NCBI GenBank assembly: GCA_963753595.1
Contig: CAVWCX010000001.1
Span: forward strand, 32,001-96,000
Direction: 5' to 3'
Length of the DNA: 64,000 nucleotides
From: Candidatus Methanoperedenaceae archaeon
GTDB taxonomy: Archaea; Halobacteriota; Methanosarcinia; Methanosarcinales; Methanoperedenaceae
Shown here: positions 14,562 through 43,385 of the stretch, in pieces
Position numbering within the stretch: position 1 is the stretch's first letter
How the letters are laid out: each line of letters opens with the position of its first letter
Position numbers and translations under genes: made by a program
Notes under the pieces: generated by a model
The model's input: the letters and a program-made list of their open reading frames with translations, nothing else
What the model was told of the DNA's origin: nothing
Database searches by the model: none

Positions 14562-16259
<1,698 letters not shown>

Positions 16260-16273
<14 letters not shown>

Positions 16274-16604
16274 AAGAGGCGAAGTTTATTGGGTCAAACT
16301 CGATCCGATCGAAGGATCAGAGATCGGGAAAACAAGACCAGCTGTCGTGATCTCAAATAATATTAACAATGAATTTGCTGATACTTTAACTGTCATTCCT
16401 GTCACTTCAAGTGTTGGGAAAGTGTACCCTTTTGAAGTTCTCATAAAGAAAGGTATTGCAAATGTATCAACCGATTCTAAAGTCAAGGCAAATCAAATAA
16501 GAACGGTGGATAAAAAGAGGCTGAATGAGCGAATAGGGATAATTCCTGATGAGATATTGAAAGAGATAGAGAAAGCCGTGAAGATCCACCTTGAAATTAA
16601 GTAA
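16260..16604 (+). CDS. mazF: MazF/PemK toxin
   Basis: RRGEVYWVKLDPIEGSEIGKTRPAVVIS, QIRTVDKKRL. Confidence 0.93.
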
Positions 16605-16868
16605 GATCCTCTTAATTCAAACCTGCATAATCCATTACTGCTTTCTGGTCATTCAGGAATTTAACGATCTTCTCAAATTCGATATCATTTCCAGGTTCCT
16701 TGTTTTTGGTCTTAAGTTCAAAAGAGCTGTTCATTCTGGGACTGTTACATATTTTTTTCATCATATCGAGCACCATGAAGAGATAACACCGGTGAACATA
16801 TATAATTACACAAAGAGGCAGATGTTGACATAATTATTCCAACAACAAAAAAGCGTCTCAACTTATGA

Positions 16869-17168
16869 TTACATCTCTATCAAAGCAAGCTCGAACTTGA
16901 TCCCCATGCAGGATTGGCAGAATCCCATGAATTCTTTTGCATTGACGGACATTTCATCGTAGAGAGATTTCGATATGTAACAAACTATGTGGACTTTTCC
17001 GGGGTTCCCGGCGAGTTTCTTTTTTATTTCGCCGTGAAGCTCCTCAAAAATCGCCACAAAGGTCTTAAAGTTGATCCTTTTCAGGATACGGATGCGCCCC
17101 ACCCCTGTTTCATCTACCCATATCCTGTAATTGGCAGATTTTCTAACAAAAAGATCCGTATCATCCAT
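16869..17168 (-). CDS. Hypothetical protein with C-terminal CxxC
   Basis: 99-aa ORF 9 nt downstream of the 17178 gene, same strand. Confidence 0.7.
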   Translation of the reverse strand: MDDTDLFVRKSANYRIWVDETGVGRIRILKRINFKTFVAIFEELHGEIKKKLAGNPGKVHIVCYISKSLYDEMSVNAKEFMGFCQSCMGIKFELALIEM

Positions 17169-17177
17169 AATAGATTC

Positions 17178-17586
17178 TTAGTTCCTCTTACCGGCCTGGA
17201 TATCCCATCTCACATCTTGCGCCAGAGACCGTCTTGCAGCAGCTGCAATATCTAATTGTTCATATATATATTCACGTAAGTACATATCTTCTATTTTTTC
17301 CGCTTCATTTTCGATCTCATGCTGGCGACTGAGAATGTTTCCAAGTTCTCTTTGTGCATGATTCCTGTCTGTACGCTGCCAGCTTTCAGCTATTGTCGAA
17401 AGCGAGCGCCTTAATCTTTCAAGTCCGATCCTTATCCGGTGGAATTCCGGTCTTTTCAATCTTTCTTTTGCATAGTTTTCATATGGCGATTCCTGTTGAA
17501 TTTCCTCTGAAAATTCATCTATATCCGATACTTCACCATTCCATTTGTTATGGATGGCAAAAACGATCCCTTCTTTGGTTTAACAT
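17178..17586 (-). CDS. Helical hypothetical protein (~135 aa), predicted to be made by +1 frameshift at TTT-TGC (17557-17562) from leader MLNQRRDRFCHP* (17548..17586)
   Basis: +1 frame open for 128 codons from the slip site to the stop at 17178; no ATG before the TTG at 17459. Confidence 0.7.
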
Positions 17587-17615
17587 ATATTTCACATCAT
17601 CTTCATTAAAAAGAT

Positions 17616-17683
17616 GATATATATCCCTGAATATACAGGCAGGTTTTGTCACCATCTAAACAGAACCGGAATTATTACGACAA
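17616..17683 (-). promoter_or_regulatory. Degenerate regulon operator plus TATA
   Basis: ATACAGGCAG (17633-42) + 36 nt + GACAA (17679-83) next to TATATAT. Confidence 0.5.
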
Positions 17684-17726
17684 CAATTGCCTGATAGGGT
17701 AAACTTATGCTGATACTCTTCATAAA

Positions 17727-18035
17727 ATGGTTTCGGTGATCAATATGAGGGATATTTTTACAGGTGATGGGTTTAAGTTGCCAGATACAGGCATTTCAGG
17801 AAAAGGATTGGAAAATTACAGTTCTGCTAAGATCGAAGAATTCTCACCTTCGATGAAACTTGTTCTCAATATACTTGAAAATCATGGGCCACTGACACAA
17901 AAAGAGATAACGAAGGTAACCCGTCTTCCCACAAGAACAGTGCGCTATGCCTTAAACAGATTAAAACAGGAAGATATTTTAGAAGAGCGTGAATATTTCC
18001 AGGATGCCAGGCAGTGTTTATATCATATAAAATGA
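17727..18035 (+). CDS. Winged-helix (MarR/TrmB-like) transcriptional regulator
   Basis: KLVLNILENHGPLTQKEI...LPTRTVRYALNRL...DARQCLY. Confidence 0.88.
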   Translation: MVSVINMRDIFTGDGFKLPDTGISGKGLENYSSAKIEEFSPSMKLVLNILENHGPLTQKEITKVTRLPTRTVRYALNRLKQEDILEEREYFQDARQCLYHIK

Positions 18036-18080
18036 TTAGGCTTTTTTCAGGACTCTACAAGACTTGTTTTCAGGTAATAA

Positions 18081-18150
18081 TTGCCTTTGTCTTTCTGGAA
18101 ACCGAATGAATATATCAAATTTGGCTCATTTACTCGATTTAAATATATAT
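18081..18150 (+). promoter_or_regulatory. Regulon operator plus TATA
   Basis: TTGCC (18081-85), CCGAATGAA, TGGCTCATTT (18122-31) at 36-nt spacing, then TTTAAATATAT. Confidence 0.65.
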
Positions 18151-18176
18151 GAAAACTATGTTGTTTTGGTGATAAA

Positions 18177-18333
18177 ATGACACTACAAGAAAACAGAAGG
18201 GATTTACTTTGTCCCCGGAATAAAATACAGTAAAACAAAAAAGGCTATCAATCCCGAAAGTGATCAGGAGAAAGCATTGGGCGAATTTCAGGTTAATGCC
18301 CGGATGCATGATAATGTCTGGTGGCTTATATGA
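18177..18333 (+). CDS. Leader MTLQENRRDLLCPRNKIQ* (18177..18233) with +1 extension from CTT-TGT (18207-12) whose TGA overlaps the next ATG
   Basis: GGTGA RBS, ATG, shared motif AGA AGG GAT TTA CTT TGT; +1 frame open 42 codons ending in an ATGA overlap at 18330-33. Confidence 0.7.
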
Positions 18334-18479
18334 CCGCGACCAGACAGTACAAATGCCCGAACTGCAAACATTCGATATCGATAGCAACGGCAGATTTCAT
18401 CCGGGGGATTGCCATGACATCATGCGGTGATTGCGGCAGGAATGCTTTTGCAATAGACGAAGTTCTGTTGAATGGATAA
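18330..18479 (+). CDS. Small Zn-ribbon protein, 49 aa (below track cut-off)
   Basis: MTATRQYKCPNCKHSISIATADFIRGIAMTSCGDCGRNAFAIDEVLLNG; two CxxC pairs, GGTGG RBS. Confidence 0.8.
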   Translation: MTATRQYKCPNCKHSISIATADFIRGIAMTSCGDCGRNAFAIDEVLLNG

Positions 18480-18545
18480 AAAAAAACAGGGCGCTTTAAA
18501 TGATCCTATCCATTGGCGCCCCTTTCCTTATTTTTTGAGGTAAAA

Positions 18546-18641
18546 ATGAATAATAATAATGAAGAAAGAAATAAAAATAAAAATCCAGATGATGATGAAG
18601 ACCTGAGGCGCTTCCTGCGTGGAGGTTTTGGGGCAAAGTGA
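18546..18641 (+). CDS. Putative 31-aa peptide MNNNNEERNKNKNPDDDEDLRRFLRGGFGAK
   Basis: GAGGT RBS just before ATG; no homology recognised. Confidence 0.4.
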   Translation: MNNNNEERNKNKNPDDDEDLRRFLRGGFGAK

Positions 18642-18791
18642 GCGCACGAGCAATAACGGAATGTGTCCGGGGGGTCACATTTCACCTCCTGTTTTATTAC
18701 TTCCAAAAGAATCAGATCAGTTGTGACAACAATTGCTCCGATAAATAGGTTTATAAAGGTTAAATCCAAGTTTAAGCTGGAGAATTTAAAA

Positions 18792-19080
18792 ATGAATTTT
18801 AGAAGGAATCGTCTTTGCCATTACTGGCCCACAGATTGAATCGATAAAGATAGACCATTTACCGCCATCAGCAAAACTTGTTTTTAAGGTGCTTGAATCG
18901 AGCGGTTTTTTAACACAGAAAGATATTGCAAAGCAAACATATCTTCCGGCCAGGACAGTGCGTTATGCCCTGAACAGGCTGAAAGAAGAAAAAATATTGC
19001 AGGAGCGCTTCTATTTCCAGGATGCGCGCCAGAGCCTTTATGGGCTGAATGTTATTGTTCCGGGGGTGGTGAACGTATAA
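18792..19080 (+). CDS. Winged-helix regulator (~95 aa), predicted to be made by +1 frameshift at CTT-TGC (18813-18) from leader MNFRRNRLCHYWPTD* (18792..18839)
   Basis: Paralog of 17727 gene; homology (KIDHLPPSAKLVFKVLE vs KIEEFSPSMKLVLNILE) extends upstream of the GTG at 18889 into a frame with no ATG/GTG/TTG. Confidence 0.8.
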
Positions 19081-19150
19081 TTTACCTTACCTCCTTATTT
19101 TTTAGACCGCTGCTAATCACTTTTTTTGTAAAATCGAATTATTCGGGTAA

Positions 19151-19510
19151 TTATACGCGCGAATCTCTCAGCCTGTATTTAGCATACGCCAGAACATTCT
19201 CCTCAATGAACCCCGGAGCTTCAACTGGCTCTATACCCATGCTCTGCAATCCTTCTGCAGCCCCTCCTCCGATCCTGCTGCACAGCACCGCATCGCAGTC
19301 ATTGATCAGAGAAACACTTTTTTCAAGAGCATCATCGGCATGACCGCCATACTCAAGAGTACCGCATGAGGGATCGTTCTCTCTCACCTCAATGACTTTG
19401 ATCCCTTCTCCATCGGATTCTATTATGATGAATTTTCTTGCCTTCCCGAAATGCTGGTTAATAACCTTACCATCACTTGAAGCAATTGCCATCTTTAAAC
19501 TTGTCTTCAT
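19151..19510 (-). CDS. NifX/NifB-family (FeMo-cofactor-carrier-like) protein
   Basis: AIASSDG..INQHFGKA..DCDAVLCSRIGGGA. Confidence 0.88.
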   Translation of the reverse strand: MKTSLKMAIASSDGKVINQHFGKARKFIIIESDGEGIKVIEVRENDPSCGTLEYGGHADDALEKSVSLINDCDAVLCSRIGGGAAEGLQSMGIEPVEAPGFIEENVLAYAKYRLRDSRV

Positions 19511-19514
19511 GATC

Positions 19515-20378
19515 TCACACCAGCGGTCTTGGCTGCTTTTCATTGGGCAGTACCGGGAGCTTCATCGTATTCACAAGGATCGGGTCTTTCACTTCTTTTG
19601 CCCGCTCAAGCAAAAACTCTCTTCCTCTTCTGGTGATCGCGAATATGGGTACAGCCGTGCCGAATTGCGCTATGGTCTTTCCAGCTACGCCAGCCCGTAT
19701 CCATTTTGATGTGCAGCCTGTGGTCATATCCACAAGATCGATAAATTCTTTTGCTTCGTTATCAGGCATGCCTGTTGAATGTACTCCGAATGCTATTACT
19801 TCAGAGCCGGTTTCCTTTTCGATTTTTCTTATTTCTTTGAGATCTTTGAGATTTGCCACGGATACACCTATCTTCCTGTATCCAAGCTTTATGGCTTTTC
19901 TCACCCCGCTCACCTGGTCTATCGCGGCAGTGTCGGGGTCAATGACCACGCCGTCAGCAGCCTCTATCCTTTTGATCAGCCCCTGTATTGGTGACGTCTC
20001 CGTCAGTCCTGATATGCGCGAGCCCATGCCCTGACAGAGTTTGGGATTGCTCGTGATTACTGTGCCCGCCCCGTCGCAAACGGTAACTGTGGTGTCGAGC
20101 AGCCCGCGCCGCAGGGCGGTCATGAAAGTTTCGCTTGCCCCGAACCCCACGAATATCTCCATCTCCAGTTCACGGTTCTCTGTGAACATGCCGAAATCTT
20201 TCATCCTGAATTCTATATTTTCCCTGGCGGTCTTTGGGGTGAATTTCTTGATCCCCCTGACCTTATCAAAGATGGGACAGTACTCAGTCATCGGAACACC
20301 GACCTCAATTACCTTCCCGTTCTCAATGACTACTCGCGTTCTGCCCTGAAGTTCCATTACATGTCGTTCTTTTGGCAT
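19515..20378 (-). CDS. Methanogenesis marker protein 8 (DUF2099)
   Basis: HVMELQGRTRVVI, YCPIF, NIEFRMKDFGMFT, VCDGAGTVI, GMGSRISGL. Confidence 0.85.
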   Translation of the reverse strand: MPKERHVMELQGRTRVVIENGKVIEVGVPMTEYCPIFDKVRGIKKFTPKTARENIEFRMKDFGMFTENRELEMEIFVGFGASETFMTALRRGLLDTTVTVCDGAGTVITSNPKLCQGMGSRISGLTETSPIQGLIKRIEAADGVVIDPDTAAIDQVSGVRKAIKLGYRKIGVSVANLKDLKEIRKIEKETGSEVIAFGVHSTGMPDNEAKEFIDLVDMTTGCTSKWIRAGVAGKTIAQFGTAVPIFAITRRGREFLLERAKEVKDPILVNTMKLPVLPNEKQPRPLV

Positions 20379-20543
20379 AATTTGCCTCCTTATATTATGA
20401 ATAGTCCTTGCATACTTTTAACGGCTGGCTTTTCGGCAAATTGAGTGAAAAAAGAGGCAAATTTTGCCTCAATTGTATAGCTCGTTAGGTGGGTTTAATG
20501 TTGAGAATTAAGCAATTTTTCCTTTTCGGCAATAACTTACCAA

Positions 20544-20777
20544 TCACCCCTTCTTCACAAAAATGTGGTATGCTCCCTCTTTTGTTTTGACATCAAGGAA
20601 CTCATCACCGGATTTTGTCAACCATACATCGATATTTTGCCAGGCTTCAGGATCGCTGGCTATGACCTCGAGTATTTCACCTTTGTTGAGTTTTCTTAAT
20701 TCCTGAAGTGTCATTACTCGTGGATAGGGGCATTTCTCTCCACGGACGTCCAGCTTAACATTTGAAATTATGGTCAT
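20544..20777 (-). CDS. tusA: TusA-family sulfur carrier
   Basis: LDVRGEKCPYP. Confidence 0.9.
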   Translation of the reverse strand: MTIISNVKLDVRGEKCPYPRVMTLQELRKLNKGEILEVIASDPEAWQNIDVWLTKSGDEFLDVKTKEGAYHIFVKKG

Positions 20778-20788
20778 TATTAACCGCC

Positions 20789-21829
20789 TTATTTTTTATT
20801 TATATCTGCAATTGCCGCTTCTAAAAAGCTCTTATCTATCCAGGAATTGTAATCCACTTTTCCTTCCAGTAAATTATTTTCCTTCATGAATTCCTCTTCG
20901 TCTTTCAGGGCTTGAATTGAAAGATCTGTAATTCTCGGGTCATTATAAACGGTCTTATTGTCGGGATACGCTGCCCTTGTAGCTGTCTCGTTTTGTTTTT
21001 TTGCTTTAGCAAATATTTTCATTGCTTCATCAAAATGTTCATCTGCCCATTGCGATGTTTTCAGATCGATTTTCAATAATCTTTTTACGATTTCAGGATG
21101 TTTCTTTGCAAAATCTCCACGAACGTTGATCGGACTTGGTGGTGATTGGAATTCGGGATGATCTTTTCCACTCCATAGTATTCTTGCTTCCCCTGTGGAT
21201 AAAAGTGGAAATGTTGTACTCTCGCTTTCTACAAGAGCATCGACATCCCCTCTTATCAAGGCTGGACCGGAGGCTGTAAAATCGAGATTGAACGATTCAA
21301 TATCTTTGATAGACAATCCCTCTGTTTTCAATGCTTTTGTAATAGTTGCATGGCGCACAGTCCCTTTCAAATAAGCCACTTTTTTGCCTTTTAGATCCTT
21401 GACGGATTTTATAGCTGAATCATTCCTGACTATTATTGAAGAGGCTGAAATCGGATTACCAAAAGATGAGAGCCCAATTAGTTTGATATCTGCACCAGCT
21501 GCTGCGGTACGCAAAGCCGGATCAGTACCAGTATACGTGAAATCAAGACCGCCGCTGGCTAAAGCTACCATAGCTTCGGAGCCTCCGCCAGTAAATGGAT
21601 AATACTCTATTTTTATCCCATCCTTTGCGAATTCTTCATCCAACCACCCTTTTTCTATGTTTAATAAGAATTTGAGATGGCCAGGGGCTGTACTTCCAAT
21701 TTTAATTACTGAGATCTTTTCCTCACTATTTTGTGAGTTATTTTCATAAAAATAAATACCCGCCGAGCCTATTAATAAGGCTATTATCCCAATACTTAAT
21801 GCTGATTTACGTGTCATATTTTCCCACAT
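20789..21829 (-). CDS. SsuA/TauA-like ABC substrate-binding protein
   Basis: N-terminal anchor, ALASGGLD, IKSVKDLKGKKVA, FAKKHPEIVKRLL. Confidence 0.88.
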   Translation of the reverse strand: MWENMTRKSALSIGIIALLIGSAGIYFYENNSQNSEEKISVIKIGSTAPGHLKFLLNIEKGWLDEEFAKDGIKIEYYPFTGGGSEAMVALASGGLDFTYTGTDPALRTAAAGADIKLIGLSSFGNPISASSIIVRNDSAIKSVKDLKGKKVAYLKGTVRHATITKALKTEGLSIKDIESFNLDFTASGPALIRGDVDALVESESTTFPLLSTGEARILWSGKDHPEFQSPPSPINVRGDFAKKHPEIVKRLLKIDLKTSQWADEHFDEAMKIFAKAKKQNETATRAAYPDNKTVYNDPRITDLSIQALKDEEEFMKENNLLEGKVDYNSWIDKSFLEAAIADINKK

Positions 21830-32629: not shown

Positions 32630-34751
32630 TTATCTCCTCAGTACCATATATCCTGTGCCAACAAGACCTGCCACAGCAAACAATATCCAATCATATTGCC
32701 GGGGTTTCGCATTATCAACGGGTTTTGTTACTGGCGAACTGGCCTGGACTGCGACGGCTGACGATGTGGATGGGGTTGTTGTTTCTGCCGACGTGGAAGA
32801 TTCAGCAGATGGGGTGGTTGCATTAGCAGTTGCAACTTTTAAATCTACTTTTGGAGCATCCTTGATCACCTGTTCAAAAAATGGATAGAATCGCAGTGCA
32901 GTTGAACTGTCAGCCACCTTGAATTTTAGTCCATTTGCAAGATCAATAACAGCATTCTGGCCAAGGTTTATGTTGTTCTTATTGTGGAGCAGAACGTAAT
33001 TCTCATTCGCTTCTTTTACCTCAAATATTCCGAACTTATCTCCTGTTTTTATTTCAAGCACATTGCGGGATATAAGCCATGTGTATCTGAGCTGCACAAA
33101 TGTTTCCGCGTCTTTGCGCCCCTGAAAATATACTGTCCACATAGGTAACGAATACAGGCACATTGGACTCTCCCTTCAGGTCTTTCTCTGAATAAGTGTA
33201 TACTTCTCCCTCATTTACTACTTTAATATCTAATGTTATTCCATCTTTTGTCAGGGAAAGTGATGCCTGTCTTGGATTTGTTCTTACATCAAGAGCATCA
33301 ACTGTTAGATTATATCCTTCACCAAGGTTCCATGTCGTTCCAAGCTTTAGTGTCTGTTTTTCCTGTTTATCCTGCTCCTTTATCAGTTTGGCTAACTTAT
33401 TTGCCTTGCCATTCACGGCAACATAAAGCCCACCCTACCAGCCAAGGCGTGCATAGAAGCCTCCATTCCTGCTATTCATGAACGTCTTTGTTGTGCTATT
33501 GTACTCAAGAGCATTCTCAATTTTCAAGCCTTTTTCACTGAATACCTTATATTTTTGGTCTGTCCGGGATGTATTATAAAGCAGCTTTTCTGCCTCAATA
33601 GTCCTGCTCGCATTGGTCAAAGTTGATGCGCTCTGATCAACGACTAGACTTTCACTTGATTTTCCACCACCTGATGCATACCAGAATCCTGAAAATCTTT
33701 GCGCATCCCATACAAGAGTCTTATACTTGCTTTCGTCATAAGCGCCGCCTCTTAATTCATATTTTCCGGGTTTTGTTTTTTCAAGGATCGGATAAAAGCG
33801 AAGTGCTGTTGCGCTATCGGCTACCTTGAATTTTAGATCGCCATACAACGGCTGTACCGAGTTCTGGCCAAGGTTTATTGATTCTTTATTATATAAGGTC
33901 ATGGTGTTTTCTGTTGCTTCTTTTACTTCAAAAACACCGAATTTATCCCCTATCTTTATTTCAAGCACATTATTTGATATCAGCCATGTGTACTTAAGCT
34001 GGACAAAGGCAGCTTTGTCTTCAGCGCCTGTGAAAATACCATCAATGTAGGTGACAAATAGCGGTACGCTGGATTCTCCACCCAGGCTTTTTTCGGTATA
34101 GGTATAGACTTCACCTTCATTAACTACCTTTATATCCAGTGTTTTGCCATCCTTTGTCAGGTTAAGCCATGCCTGTCTTGGGGATGTTTTTGCATCAATG
34201 GCTTCAAGGGTAAGATTGTAGCCTTCTGGGAGTCTCCAGGTCTCACCGAGCTTTAATGTCTGCTTTTCTTCTGCCTTTTGTTCTTTTACAAGTTTTGCCA
34301 GCTTGTTCGCTTTTCCATTCACAGCTACATAAACGTCGCCAAACCATCCAAGCCGTGCGTAATATCCGCCCGTAGTATTTCTTGTAAAGATCTTGCTGGT
34401 ACTGTTATATTCAAGACCGTTCTCTACTAATTTACCTTTTTCACTGAAAACCTTATATTTCTGGTCAGTACGAACGGTATTATACAGGAGTTTTTCTTCA
34501 TTGATGATCCTGCTACCTGTTTTCAGGCTTGACGCAGCCTGGTCTATCCTGAGGGTTTCACTTGATTTCCCGCCGCCTGACGCATACCAGAAACCAGTAA
34601 AATTCTGTGCATCCCACAGCAATGTGGTATTATATTTATTTGAGCTCTCATCAAAAACCACGCCGTGGATCTCAACTTTAGTCACGTTGCCAGCTGTCAC
34701 AGGTAGTGCGGAAATTAATATGATCGCAAGTATTGCCAATATTTGTTTCAT
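32630..34751 (-). pseudogene. Methanosarcinales S-layer protein (two DUF1608 repeats, Thr/Ser linker, C-terminal anchor) with in-frame TAG at 33435-37 and frameshift at ~33115-33125
   Basis: WDAQNFTGFWY..SETL, LKFKVAD..LRFYP repeated twice; three track ORFs join into one ~705-aa protein. Confidence 0.85.
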
Positions 34752-34786
34752 TTTTATAACCTCTGTGTTCAGAGATTTTTCCAAAT

Positions 34787-34974: not shown

Positions 34975-35193
34975 TCAGTGTTTTTTTATGATGACTTTAA
35001 AATCACTGCCAGATTCCTCGATCCGTACTACTTCATGCCCATGTTCCCTGGTCCATTGAGGAATTGCATTTCTTGCAGTAACGTCATCGGTTAAAATTTC
35101 AAGTTCTTCGCCGGTTTTTAGCCCATCTATCTGTTTTTTGGTATAAAACAATGGTAACGGGCATACTCTACCTCTTGCATCTATTTTGTGCAT
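34975..35193 (-). CDS. tusA: TusA-family sulfur carrier
   Basis: IDARGRVCPLP. Confidence 0.9.
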   Translation of the reverse strand: MHKIDARGRVCPLPLFYTKKQIDGLKTGEELEILTDDVTARNAIPQWTREHGHEVVRIEESGSDFKVIIKKH

Positions 35194-35271
35194 GTGTGGT
35201 AGTATGAATGCCGGCATATTTTAAGTTTGTATTAAGGCAAAAAATGTAAGAGTTATTCGCTTTTTGATAAA

Positions 35272-35505
35272 TCAGCTTTTTCGTACAAAGATACTATAAT
35301 TTCCTTTGATAGCCTCTACGGCAAGCAGTTCATTCCCTGATTTCTTTGCCCATGCATCTATATTCTGTGGAGCTACAGGGTCGCTGGCAAGGATTTTTAA
35401 TACCTGCCCCTTTTGAAGTTTGTCCACCTGCTGTTTTGTCCGTATCAAAGGATAGGGGCATGCTTCGCCCCTTACATCCAGTTCGAAGTCGTGAACTATT
35501 GTCAT
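35272..35505 (-). CDS. tusA: TusA-family sulfur carrier
   Basis: LDVRGEACPYP. Confidence 0.9.
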   Translation of the reverse strand: MTIVHDFELDVRGEACPYPLIRTKQQVDKLQKGQVLKILASDPVAPQNIDAWAKKSGNELLAVEAIKGNYSIFVRKS

Positions 35506-35506
35506 A

Positions 35507-35881
35507 TCAGAACACCAGTGTCACTTCACTCTCCAGTATCCTGTTCGTCAGGTCATCGATGTTAAGTTTAGATATTCCTTCGATAATTTCGCTGTCAGCC
35601 ACACCTCTTTTCTTCAGGTCCGCCTCCAGGGCATAGAACTTCACGCTATCCTTTGCCTTAATGATGCTTGCTTCAATGCTTGGCACATCTTTCTGCCATA
35701 CAGCAGCATCGCCGTAGCTGGTCTTCTGTCCCTTTACCACAGAGTGAACACCTCCACTCACAAAAGTGATGGACGGCGAATTTCCTGCCGCAGCCTGCGT
35801 CTCAGCAAGCGGGATCGCGCTGTATGCATCTTCCTTGCCGTAAGGGGGCTGTGTCACGATTATGTTTACTTTCTTGCTCAT
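35507..35881 (-). CDS. DsrF/TusC-like protein
   Basis: IIVTQPPYG, FVSGGVHSVVKGQ, ADLKKRGV. Confidence 0.85.
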   Translation of the reverse strand: MSKKVNIIVTQPPYGKEDAYSAIPLAETQAAAGNSPSITFVSGGVHSVVKGQKTSYGDAAVWQKDVPSIEASIIKAKDSVKFYALEADLKKRGVADSEIIEGISKLNIDDLTNRILESEVTLVF

Positions 35882-35886
35882 TTTTA

Positions 35887-36267
35887 TTACCCTAATAATA
35901 TGGTCTTGTCTGATTCTGCTGTCCATTCACCAAGATCGTAAAGTCCGCCGATGACAACGCCTTCTGTCTGCTGTTTTGTCACACCGCGGGCATCTGTGCA
36001 TTTGATGCATGCTATTGCATCGGTCTTGGGATTCTTCAGTCCTTTCTTGAGAACGGTGCCAAAGAGCTGCTCAACGACTGGGAATTCTTTTGGTCCCTGG
36101 TCGCGGTGTCCGATCAACGTGCCATCCAGGTAGTTGAAGAAGTTGACATTGATCCCTTTCTCTTTTGCAGCATGGGCGAGCCTGATAAGCGTGTATGCCG
36201 CTTCATCGCGATATGGGCCGTTTATCGATACGATCGTTAAGGTTTTATTATAGCCGTTGTTTGCCAT
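35887..36267 (-). CDS. DsrE/TusD-like protein
   Basis: GPY, FFNYLDG, ACIKCTDARG active-site Cys. Confidence 0.85.
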   Translation of the reverse strand: MANNGYNKTLTIVSINGPYRDEAAYTLIRLAHAAKEKGINVNFFNYLDGTLIGHRDQGPKEFPVVEQLFGTVLKKGLKNPKTDAIACIKCTDARGVTKQQTEGVVIGGLYDLGEWTAESDKTILLG

Positions 36268-36276
36268 TGTATCACC

Positions 36277-36603
36277 TTAGAACCATGCCACTCGTGTGTT
36301 ATCTTCAACTATGTTGTCAAGGAGTGTTCCTATTTCATTTACCTGTACCCGGTCGGCCAGGTTCCCGTCAAGTCCCCTTGACTGCACAGCCCTGTCATCT
36401 GCAAGGATTTTGATGCCTTTCTTTTTAGCATCCTGGAGTTTATTCCCGAATTCACTTTTCCGAGCAGCGGTAACTCCGTCCTCTACAAGATAAAGAGAAA
36501 CATTGTTGCCTTTTGTTTTGGCATTTAACCCGATATCCAGAACGAGATTTGGTATCTCGGTCGTATATGGGTCTTTGGATAATACCAGTAATAGATTTGT
36601 CAT
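36277..36603 (-). CDS. DsrH/TusB-like protein
   Basis: LYLVEDGVTAA, AVQSRGL. Confidence 0.82.
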   Translation of the reverse strand: MTNLLLVLSKDPYTTEIPNLVLDIGLNAKTKGNNVSLYLVEDGVTAARKSEFGNKLQDAKKKGIKILADDRAVQSRGLDGNLADRVQVNEIGTLLDNIVEDNTRVAWF

Positions 36604-36605
36604 GT

Positions 36606-36831
36606 TTATCTACCTCTGAAATTAATTGTTCGTTTATTATTCAATCCGGCAGTCAATTCATTCTCAACTCTTGCTATCATAGAATCAAGTGTTTCAAGTA
36701 TCGGCGTTCTTCTTTGCGCCCTTGAATACTCAAATTCGCGCCATTCCCTTAAGGTATTGAGGACCGGGGTTGTTTTCTGTGCTTTGCCTTTATCGGTGAC
36801 AAAGGCGATTCCTTCTTTTTATCTGATTAAT
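36606..36831 (-). CDS. Leader (ATT)NQIKRRNRLCHR* (36790..36831) with +1 extension from CTT-TGT (36799-36804) ending 2 nt before the dsrH-like ATG
   Basis: GGTGA RBS 6 nt before ATT; AGA AGG AAT CGC CTT TGT CAC; +1 frame open 66 codons (VTDKGKAQKTTPVLNTLREWREFEYSRAQRRTPILETLDSMIARVENELTAGLNNKRTINFRGR*). Confidence 0.7.
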
Positions 36832-36865
36832 ATTGTATCACCAGATACCTGATTATTAATGCAAT

Positions 36866-36935
36866 ACTTATATCAGTTCAGAAATCAGCAACTTTTGATT
36901 GGTTAATTCTGTTTTTGTAACAATTGGGGCAAGTT
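36866..36935 (-). promoter_or_regulatory. Regulon operator plus TATA
   Basis: AAATCAGCAA (36882-91) + 36 nt + GGCAA (36928-32). Confidence 0.8.
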
Positions 36936-37061
36936 TGTTTCAAAAATCGCTAATTTTGACCGTTGATTTTTTCTGCGGAAGCTGTCACAAAACAGGCATG
37001 GAATTGTAGGGTGTTTTATAAGATAAGATCAAGGTAAGAGTAGCGCGAAAGTGAAGGAACA

Positions 37062-43310: not shown

Positions 43311-43385
43311 TGCTCCGATGGGGATTTGAACCCCAGTCGTCAGAGTGAGAGTCTGACATGATTGGCCGTGCTACACTATCGGAGC
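43311..43385 (-). tRNA. tRNA-Glu(CTC)
   Basis: Reverse complement GCTCCGATAGTGTAG..TCAGA-CT-CTC-AC-TCTGA..GGGGTTCAAATCCCC-ATCGGAGC-A folds as a cloverleaf. Confidence 0.95.

Follow-up and report, generated by a model that had tools for sequence, protein, structure and literature searches.

In the bacterial gene prfB, a short frame-0 open reading frame (ORF) is followed by the main coding body in the +1 frame, which ribosomes enter at a CUU_U site around codon 26, with an internal Shine-Dalgarno (SD) sequence just upstream and a UGA stop codon in the A site. The trp, his and pheL attenuators also begin with a very short 5′ ORF, in which ribosome behaviour at a codon for the relevant amino acid sets downstream expression. 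A sense codon takes the place of the stop in Ty1, where PMC5009743 describes a hungry-codon +1 shift at CUU_AGG_C. In the Archaea, the -1 frameshift of Saccharolobus solfataricus fucA1 was the sole programmed frameshift reported by 2021, according to PMC8211752, and the broader recoding literature consulted adds only a viral case, a magnesium chelatase case and possible Sulfolobus cases. Here, an 18-nt cassette is described from a 64,000-nt stretch of DNA of a Candidatus Methanoperedenaceae archaeon (contig CAVWCX010000001.1, positions 32,001 to 96,000; the whole stretch is called the window below), where it lies at the head of a sulfur-relay operon and separates a short frame-0 ORF from a longer ORF in the +1 frame. 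On balance, comparison of this and related sequences favours a programmed +1 frameshift cassette of the YUU_U type, similar to that of prfB, which would gate a small protein and the operon behind it.

The region 36606-36842 is best explained as the 5′ end of the mRNA of a dsrE/H-tusA operon, with the following parts.

36866 to 36874, minus strand: conserved GATATAAGT, candidate TATA box of the operon promoter, kept in orthologous upstream regions
36842 to 36837, minus strand: SD-like GGTGAT, complementary to the host 16S 3′ end GGAUCACCUCCU
36831 to 36829, minus strand: ATT, presumed weak frame-0 start, in the position of the orthologues' ATG
36790 to 36831, minus strand: frame-0 short ORF of 13 sense codons and a TAA at 36792-36790, by direct reading
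36799 to 36816, minus strand: 18-nt cassette AGA AGG AAT CGC CTT TGT (site 1), common to at least six gene families
36799 to 36804, minus strand: proposed shift site CTT_T GT, with a Leu codon in the P site and a Cys codon in the A site
36606 to 36818, minus strand: +1 open frame of 70 codons and a TAA at 36608-36606, from the stop-to-stop ORF list
36612 to 36616, minus strand: GAGGT, SD of the dsrH-like gene, overlapped by the final small-ORF codons (F R G R)
34975 to 36603, minus strand: operon body, from the ORF list and Pfam

Frame 0 reads ATT AAT CAG ATA AAA AGA AGG AAT CGC CTT TGT CAC CGA, encoding I N Q I K R R N R L C H R, and the sense span of the +1 frame is 36818-36609. A sequence-only reading of the same DNA had placed the stop of unshifted ribosomes at 36790 with about 185 nt left untranslated, and had the +1 frame crossing GAGGT to end 2 nt before the next ATG; direct reading agrees, with 186 nt between the frame-0 stop and the dsrH-like ATG at 36603 and with the +1 TAA 2 nt 5′ of that ATG. 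Its count of 66 shifted codons would correspond to a shift two codons before the likeliest point, CTT_T (36804-36801), from which 64 codons are read; 70 is the entire open frame. The same reading had noted that the ORF track misses this frame, which is indeed absent from the list of ORFs with canonical starts and appears in the stop-to-stop list, and had recognised sulfur-relay genes downstream, where Pfam finds three DsrE/DsrH-family and two TusA genes. The first ATG, GTG or TTG of the +1 frame does not occur before codon 47, and the small ORF is probably translated from 36800 onward.

The resemblance to prfB extends to the short frame-0 ORF with the main body in +1, to a P-site CUU before U at which tRNA-Leu(GAG) could re-pair on UUU, to an A-site triplet starting with UG and to a shift that would be obligatory for the product; an SD-like element a few nucleotides upstream may be a further parallel, its predicted pairing with the 16S 3′ end being strong in the common cassette and weak at site 1. 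Unlike prfB, the cassette has a sense Cys codon, UGY, in the A site in place of UGA, so there is no release-factor feedback; it lies at codons 5-11, it is portable and found in many unrelated genes where prfB is a single autoregulated gene, and it is archaeal. With fucA1 it shares an archaeal cellular gene spread over two frames, the product of which needs recoding, but fucA1 shifts -1 in the middle of the gene, at the heptamer A-AAA-AAT, and is a single gene of a single species, whereas the cassette would shift +1 at the 5′ end and is conserved across several methanogen families. The downstream DsrE/DsrH-family and TusA genes, as assigned by Pfam, resemble the dsrE3A-dsrE2B-tusA cluster of Metallosphaera; that literature (e.g. 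PMC4175335) treats the proteins, and no frameshift-gated leader gene was met there. Full-text literature searches on Methanoperedens, archaeal frameshifting and leader peptides, DsrE/TusA and methanogen sulfur regulation turned up no such cassette. A +1 shift of the prfB kind is a known type; new here would be the domain, the use as a 5′ cassette by multiple genes and the sense codon in the A site.

Judged by its substitution pattern, the +1 frame encodes a conserved small protein under purifying selection. It is free of stops in 21 of 48 other genomes of the genus when the whole family sample is considered (12 of 24 in the first draw), was absent from all four sampled genomes of other genera, and is single-copy in its own genome; homologous database proteins carry the name Candidatus Methanoperedens, and homologues were found only in this genus. 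The codon alignment comprises 20 intact orthologues, with L020, L021 and L022 excluded as truncated or broken, and its substitutions are predominantly synonymous: the ratio of nonsynonymous to synonymous substitution rates (dN/dS) for codons 8-70 is 0.21 in the ORF frame vs 1.0-1.3 in the other two frames, and for codons 8-22 it is 0.19 vs 0.75-1.0. Over ORF codons 1-7 the nucleotides are almost invariant and synonymous variation is suppressed; where the two frames overlap, dN/dS is 0.036 in frame 0 vs 0.24 in +1. AlphaFold2, run on the 20-sequence alignment, predicts a helical hairpin (H11-34 and H39-60) with a mean predicted local distance difference test score (pLDDT) of 72.7 and with residues 1-9 below 50. 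The protein has no Pfam or NCBIfam family and no Atlas neighbour, and the best hit of a PDB-fold search (E 1.1) was among generic helical hairpins. The sequence-only reading had treated this ORF as a mere leader, which the selection on a predicted helical-hairpin protein contradicts. It had proposed comparing orthologous leaders for a conserved stop position or a conserved peptide, and both proved to be conserved; it had regarded stops in the +1 frame of related genomes with an intact operon as telling against its interpretation, and 21 of the 48 other genomes have this frame without stops.

No conventional start can be assigned to this protein. An ORF-frame ATG, GTG or TTG upstream of codon 12 is present in none of the 20 orthologues, all of which have an SD-served start in frame -1 relative to the ORF, with GGTGAT or a near variant 4-6 nt 5′ of the ATG or ATT. 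Of the 20, 16 use ATG for this frame-0 start, whereas L003, L013, L014 and the window have ATT. In the clade of the window, a TAA directly before the first ORF-frame codon closes the ORF frame, and the ORF of the ATT clade is still under purifying selection (dN/dS 0.11-0.50). Orthologous frame-0 peptides follow the pattern M-x-x-I-K-R-R-N/D-R-L-C, mostly with a stop 7-10 codons past AGA (28 in L010). Database versions of the small protein begin at an internal TTG, giving 48 residues; such a start would cut off selected sequence, and the window has TTA at this position. In L022 (G047:C67), the small ORF is internally deleted in frame, with 42 codons left, and retains the cassette and the C-terminal INFRGR before an intact dsrH-like orthologue.

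The cassette is spread across unrelated genes. Its 18-nt consensus, AGA AGG RAT CGY YTT TGY, was counted 92 times in 39 of 49 genomes of the genus vs 0 for a reversed control pattern. The genome of the window has three copies, all within the 64,000 nt, and the two besides site 1 are as follows.

18792 to 19080, plus strand: site 2, with ATG at 18792, cassette at 18801-18818 and a winged-helix regulator (Pfam HTH_24) in +1
17178 to 17586, minus strand: site 3, with ATG at 17586, cassette at 17574-17557 (AGAAGGGATCGTTTTTGC) and a 131-codon ORF in +1

The 131-codon ORF has no Pfam or NCBIfam match. At 17727-18035 there is another regulator paralogue, this one starting with an ordinary ATG. Across the genus, 51 distinct cassette instances were inspected, and the genes fall into at least six unrelated ORF families.

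Small protein of the dsr operon: 21 instances
131-residue protein: 14 instances
44-residue ORF: 8 instances
Winged-helix regulator: 5 instances
44-residue ORF fused to the following binding protein: 1 instance
110-residue ORF: 1 instance
Instance truncated by a contig end: 1 instance

In all 51, a long ORF follows in +1. The frame-0 start lies 3-5 codons before AGA (45 ATG, 1 GTG, 1 TTG and 4 ATT) and frame 0 closes 7-15 codons on, once after 28; a canonical +1 start is found upstream in just two, leaving 49 without. Together with the conserved SD and ATG in frame 0, this supports the earlier claim that the +1 ORF needs recoding. The spacing from start to cassette is always in whole codons, with ATG replacing AGA or lying 2, 3, 4, 5 or 7 codons ahead, and the frame-0 ORF of most cassettes (6-18 codons; 28 in L246) contains one invariant Cys codon. 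Relaxed searches recovered regulator paralogues with ATG in the place of AGA (ATG AGG RAT CGT CTT TGC), in which the TGA of ATGA closes the +1 frame. In a motif scan across GTDB, the matches listed outside Methanoperedens were only single ones in unrelated bacteria; these are the chance expectation and do not define the distribution of the cassette. Matches of the AGAAGGRATAGTTTTTAT type were rejected as cassettes, being the internal EGIVFIGPS motif of an ATP-grasp carboxylase.

Variant cassettes with TGY replaced were seen in leuA/cimA-like paralogues (G000:C11:36309-37829, L258; G042:C2, L259). The variant in the genome of the window is CGT CTT TTA, with an in-frame ATG CGA GGG ATC also present, and CGY TTT ATT TAA occurs in at least seven other genomes. 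In paralogue B (G000:C7:155545-157032) the homologous ATG is gone, the cassette is altered, the ORF is in a different register and there is no canonical start ahead of the ILDTT motif. Both leuA-like paralogues score as NF002085, by which LeuA and CimA are not separable. That the TTA and ATT variants might sense Leu and Ile is therefore at most a speculative suggestion.

Beyond the genus, the cassette is found in several methanogen families, at the gene of the winged-helix regulator. One search for this large protein family gave 3467 proteins, and another gave 793 representatives. Regulator loci were gathered from other families of the phylum and class, 63 in total and including single-contig Methanosarcinaceae- and Methanothrix-type genomes, and 54 of them have the form SD-N5-8-ATG AGG GAT CGN YTT TGY with the body in +1. 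The other nine lack the cassette, eight being high-GC loci with an ordinary in-frame ATG and one an extra paralogue. Distinct regulator contexts from metagenomes bear it in 70 of 71 cases. The layout of frame 0 followed by a +1 body without a +1 start recurs in 49/51 cassettes of the genus, 54/54 of the genome regulator cassettes and 70/70 of those from metagenomes, and since single-contig genomes carry the regulator cassette it is not an assembly artefact. Outside the genus, TGA closes the regulator +1 frame. Five database proteins (P0002, P0003, P0004, P0015 and P0020) start upstream in the ORF frame; in these the contig presumably either has TGG for the TGA of ATGA or, for P0002 on a 1029-nt contig, lacks a base before the cassette.

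Public annotations of the regulator show at least four differing types of wrong or doubtful start, among them ATC read as Met, the GTG of a cassette and internal GTG or ATG codons. Annotated N-termini MVFVG.., MDFAE.. and MYFAE.. match ATC taken as start, VIVF.. and MIVF.. match a GTG variant cassette that retains the frame-0 ATG, and the internal GTG or ATG starts give proteins of 63-76 residues. Some homologues are annotated as 'transcription initiation factor IIE alpha subunit'. In the AlphaFold2 model of the regulator, the GIVFA segment is unstructured, with a mean pLDDT of 49 for residues 1-10 vs 92-96 in the winged-helix core; its place outside the confident part of the model agrees with a signal at the nucleotide level. 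One locus, L274 (G071:C64), is one base shorter and reads ATG AGT GAC GTC TTT GCT in frame, a natural 'resolved' form, and L275 (G081:C8), of the same family, has the standard regulator cassette.

Several features of the cassette point to a nucleotide-level constraint beyond what either frame alone explains. For Phe in the +1 frame, the regulator cassettes use TTT in 54 of 54 cases, although the flanking long ORFs prefer TTC (654 TTC, 374 TTT). Y13, U16 and UGY are unchanged across cassettes at gene starts, leuA-type variants excepted, and the codon ahead of YTT varies (CGT, CGC, CGA, CTA, TTA, TGT, CAT, CAA), as does the third residue of the GIVFA segment in +1 (V, A, D, Y, I, N). The A-site triplet at site 1 and in all regulator cassettes is TGT or TGC, for Cys, and not a stop, and the cassette gene products examined by Pfam are not release factors. 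Genes for tRNA-Leu(GAG), tRNA-Phe(GAA) and one tRNA-Cys(GCA) were found in the genome, within a detected and incomplete set of 35 tRNAs. Pairing of the common cassette with the 16S 3′ end amounts to -11.5 kcal/mol, beyond the first percentile of window 14-mers (-10.7); it is -9.0 kcal/mol at site 3 and at background level at site 1 (-4.1) and site 2 (-4.0), the background mean being -3.4.

A YUU_U shift fits the combination of an SD-served frame-0 ATG, a +1 body without a start and these nucleotide constraints. In the mechanism proposed, GGTGAT would position ribosomes at the frame-0 start (ATT here, ATG in most relatives), from which they would read a few codons and enter the cassette AGA AGG RAT CGY YTT TGY, inside which a fraction would slip +1. 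With UGY in the A site, peptidyl-tRNA-Leu(GAG), or tRNA-Phe in the UUU variants, would shift from YUU to UUU, helped, as in bacterial prfB, by base pairing between the 16S 3′ end and the purine-rich GAGGRAUC that lies two bases upstream, and the codon read after the shift would be GYN (Ala or Val). Non-shifted ribosomes would terminate after 13 codons. Shifted ribosomes would yield a helical protein of 64-70 residues and end 2 nt before the dsrH-like ATG, over its SD, and the shift would thereby supply the downstream sulfur-relay genes by coupling. It is likely that expression of the small protein requires a +1 frameshift from the frame-0 start; for YUU_UGY as the exact site of that shift, the case is evenly balanced.

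Other routes into the +1 frame at the cassette were tried and rejected: a TTG start at cassette positions 15-17, which lies in the third frame and closes within 2-26 codons, and read-through of the +1-frame TGA, since site 1 and its clade have TAA and there is no in-frame start upstream. A hairpin between SD and cassette (GAUCGYY being complementary to GGUGAUC) is not supported, as 51 regulator 5′ regions fold heterogeneously with a mean z of -0.34. Transcriptional slippage is unlikely because the T run is just 3-5 nt.

The evidence for a shift at YUU_U has to be set against a number of observations that weigh against it. Site 1 itself combines weak SD-like pairing (-4.1 kcal/mol) with an ATT start, so that shifting and initiation may both be weak there, with low expression, and two cassette genes of this genome, paralogue B and site 1 with its ATT, have no canonical start. 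A hungry Cys codon in the A site is conjecture, a sense codon being unlike the stop of prfB, and leuA-type variants bear TTA or ATT for TGY; the PstS-family-like and leuA/cimA cassette genes have no evident link to sulfur. A pre-shifted, fused YTT|GYN form (ATGAGGRATCGNYTTGYN) was found in none of 401 genomes, so the shift junction is not pinned down. The form ATGGGRATYGNYTTTGY had five matches in 121 genomes, none at a regulator gene start and three inside longer open frames, and no gene start of the form ATG-GGR-ATY was found in the same number. The in-frame M S D V F A of L274 is equally compatible with a shift further 5′ or with initiation near AUC, seven GTG-containing cassettes would allow translation of I-V-F, and NCBI records take ATC as the start in several homologues. 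These last observations lead to a different reading, near-cognate initiation at the AUC (or AUU/GUG) of the cassette, with the frame-0 AUG opening a separate leader of 6-15 codons (M..R-D/N-R-L/F-C), the translation of which, or stalling at its Cys codon, would modulate the overlapping start. Almost every cassette has ATC (L231 and L245 have ATT), the annotated M-VFVG, M-DFAE and M-YFAE are ATC read as Met, seven of the 71 metagenome contexts have GTG immediately before ATC, often combined with a weaker SD upstream, L274 lends itself to such a start, and a Cys codon in the leader frame would also account for the retention of frame 0 and of U16. However, AUC has no SD at a workable distance, the purine-rich element abutting it with a gap of 1 nt, whereas AUG, 7 nt upstream of AUC, lies about 3 nt past a full SD footprint, as does the dsrH-like start, and would take the ribosomes; GIVFA is undocked in the regulator model and its third residue varies. 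To our knowledge there is also no precedent for a leader acting on an internal non-AUG start, and this reading appears unlikely.

A +1 shift at an earlier position in the cassette, at AGG_R with tRNA-Arg moving onto GGR or at RAU_C without re-pairing, which would resemble the yeast Ty3 site, would make I-V-F-A or V-F-A part of the protein. It would suit L274, which reads M S D / V F A as though C10 had been skipped, the protein P0220, which starts M T V F A (known from its protein sequence alone), and the I-x-F pattern kept in the +1 frame; AGG_G should permit G.U, G-C and G-C re-pairing, and no tRNA-Arg(CCU) is among the 35 tRNAs of the incomplete set. The invariant Y13, U16 and UGY would be left unexplained, though, re-pairing is poor for the AGG_A of site 1 and of many Methanoperedens cassettes, the codon that follows RAU in frame 0 is too variable to provide a constant slow codon, and the N-terminal segment is of low confidence in both AlphaFold2 models, all of which makes an earlier shift distinctly unlikely. 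The sequence-only reading had placed the leader under a regulon operator, and the 18-mer could be merely a DNA operator of the winged-helix regulator, with the proteins starting at the first downstream canonical codon. Regulators of this fold often autoregulate, and the motif is common to several promoter-proximal regions including that of the regulator gene itself. Yet the motif behaves as a translated recoding cassette: it lacks dyad symmetry, is invariably found on the coding strand and keeps frame with an SD-served ATG, from which it is separated by a variable number of whole codons. The first canonical +1 start, at codon 12-96, differs among orthologues and would remove the selected codons 8-22 (dN/dS 0.19) and the first helix of the regulator; palindromic candidates, AACAATTG, GTTAAC and TTAACGCCGTTAA, lie further upstream, and a role as operator alone is very improbable. 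The same low probability attaches to a decayed start or sequencing error, under which the small ORF would be the remnant of a pseudogene, with the dsrH-like start solely responsible for operon expression. The ATT and weak SD-like element of the window, the loss of ATG in another cassette gene of this genome and the SD and ATG of the dsrH-like gene itself would all suit decay, which has to contend with an out-of-frame architecture shared by 20 intact orthologues and by over 100 further cassette genes, some of them in single-contig genomes, and with continued purifying selection within the ATT clade.

The palindrome-like AACAATTG(TT) motif is found at about -65 to -103 of all three cassette ATGs of the window (for site 1, its ATT counterpart), in the regions 36920-36990, 18725-18740 and 17685-17700 upstream of the three cassette genes, and is a likely candidate for the true DNA operator. 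Related TTAACAATTGT, GTTAAC and TTAACGCCGTTAA motifs occur upstream of the regulator in other families.

Programmed frameshifting at the cassette would also affect the genes behind the small ORF, which are the following.

36603 to 36277, minus strand: dsrE/H-like gene (dsrH-like)
36267 to 35887, minus strand: dsrE-like gene
35926 to 35507, minus strand: second dsrE/H-like gene
35505 to 35272, minus strand: tusA
35217 to 34975, minus strand: second tusA

Pfam scores for the products are 37-55 bits for DsrE (cut-off 22.7) and 81-88 bits for TusA (cut-off 28.6), with one DsrH match under the threshold at 23.7 bits (cut-off 24.4). The stop-start geometry on which the coupling claimed by the sequence-only reading was based is kept in the orthologues: in 20 of 20, a gap of 1-4 nt separates the small-ORF stop and the dsrH-like ATG, and the invariant C-terminus F-R-G-R of the small protein overlies the dsrH-like SD. 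In about 17 genomes, the gene behind the small ORF is a dsrH-like orthologue (identity at least 82%), and a second dsrH-like paralogue elsewhere lacks the small ORF. A comparable arrangement was seen with the 44-codon cassette ORF, which overlaps the start of a PstS-family-like gene by 8 nt at all 11 loci checked (eight with Pfam support; one additional locus is a fusion). The design in which a short cassette ORF has its stop at or over the next start recurs in this way, and gating of the operon by the shift is plausible. By re-initiation, or by shielding nascent RNA from factor-dependent termination, the shift might also attenuate the operon, as the sequence-only reading had proposed. Predicted occlusion of the dsrH SD by RNA structure is modest and gives weak support, its unpaired probability averaging 0.36 over the 20 orthologues (0.21 for the window) vs 0.52 in the surroundings. 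If the shift is confirmed, the sulfur-relay operon of the window is probably controlled via translation of its first, previously unannotated gene.

The invariant Cys codon and the cysteine and sulfur genes that neighbour the cassette suggest a hungry-Cys-codon switch. Many of these archaea synthesise Cys on the tRNA. In other genera, the regulator gene is found near genes for cysteinyl-tRNA synthetase (L229, L242), a SepCysS-like enzyme (L208), cysteine-synthase-like proteins, pyridoxal phosphate-dependent Cys/Met enzymes, ThiF, TusA and NifH/NifD-like proteins. Were the single tRNA-Cys poorly charged in a sulfur shortage, ribosomes might pause at UGY and slip on YUU_U; the winged-helix regulator of cysteine and sulfur genes would then be made only after the slip, and in Methanoperedens the switch would have been copied onto the dsrE/H-tusA operon and other genes. 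That the cassette senses the supply of Cys-tRNA(Cys) is a tentative idea, and a rather doubtful one. A switch of this kind would be like Ty1 in that a slip at a P-site CUU would be driven by a slow sense codon in the A site and followed by a common +1 codon. It would be unlike Ty1, in which the slow codon depends on a rare tRNA-Arg and no SD-like element is needed, given that the slow Cys codon of the cassette is hypothetical and the setting prokaryotic with an SD-like stimulator. The trp, his and pheL leaders are alike in having a very short 5′ ORF with a codon for the relevant amino acid, at which the behaviour of the ribosome would set downstream expression. They differ in their terminator and antiterminator hairpins, for which neither the folding of the 51 regulator 5′ regions (mean z -0.34) nor an oligo-T tract, none of which was seen within the small ORF, gives any sign here, and the cassette has a single regulatory codon and would change the reading frame rather than transcription read-through.

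If confirmed, the cassette would be the first programmed +1 ribosomal frameshift for archaeal cellular genes and an unusual case of a portable 5′ element that gates a gene set and its regulator in several families of methanogens and methanotrophs. It would also correct the starts of a widespread regulator family, now placed at ATC, GTG or internal TTG/GTG codons, and make cysteine and sulfur sensing in methanogens directly testable. Should the sensor role prove true, these archaea would have their own equivalent of T-box and leader-peptide control, one that acts by changing the reading frame and is conserved in Methanosarcinales, Methanothrix-type and Methanomicrobiales-like methanogens as well as in methane oxidisers.

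The cassette genes of sites 2 and 3 lie within an island of sulfur and cysteine genes (14562-21829 of the window), the members of which are as follows.

14562 to 16019: O-acetylhomoserine sulfhydrylase/homocysteine synthase-like
19151 to 19543: NifX-like Nitro_FeMo-Co protein
19515 to 20378: methanogenesis marker 8/DUF2099
20544 to 20777: TusA
20789 to 21829: SsuA-family sulfonate-binding protein

Between the site 3 genes and the sulfhydrylase gene, a PemK/MazF-like toxin ORF (16260-16604, plus strand) follows a 75-codon ORF (16046-16273), and the two (16046-16604, plus strand) are probably a type II toxin-antitoxin pair. Rfam gave no match at the cassette, and its sole match in the window is a tRNA gene at 43311-43385 on the minus strand. 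After the dsrE/H-tusA operon, a 449-residue protein with two S-layer (PF07752) domains is encoded at 33435-34784 on the minus strand.

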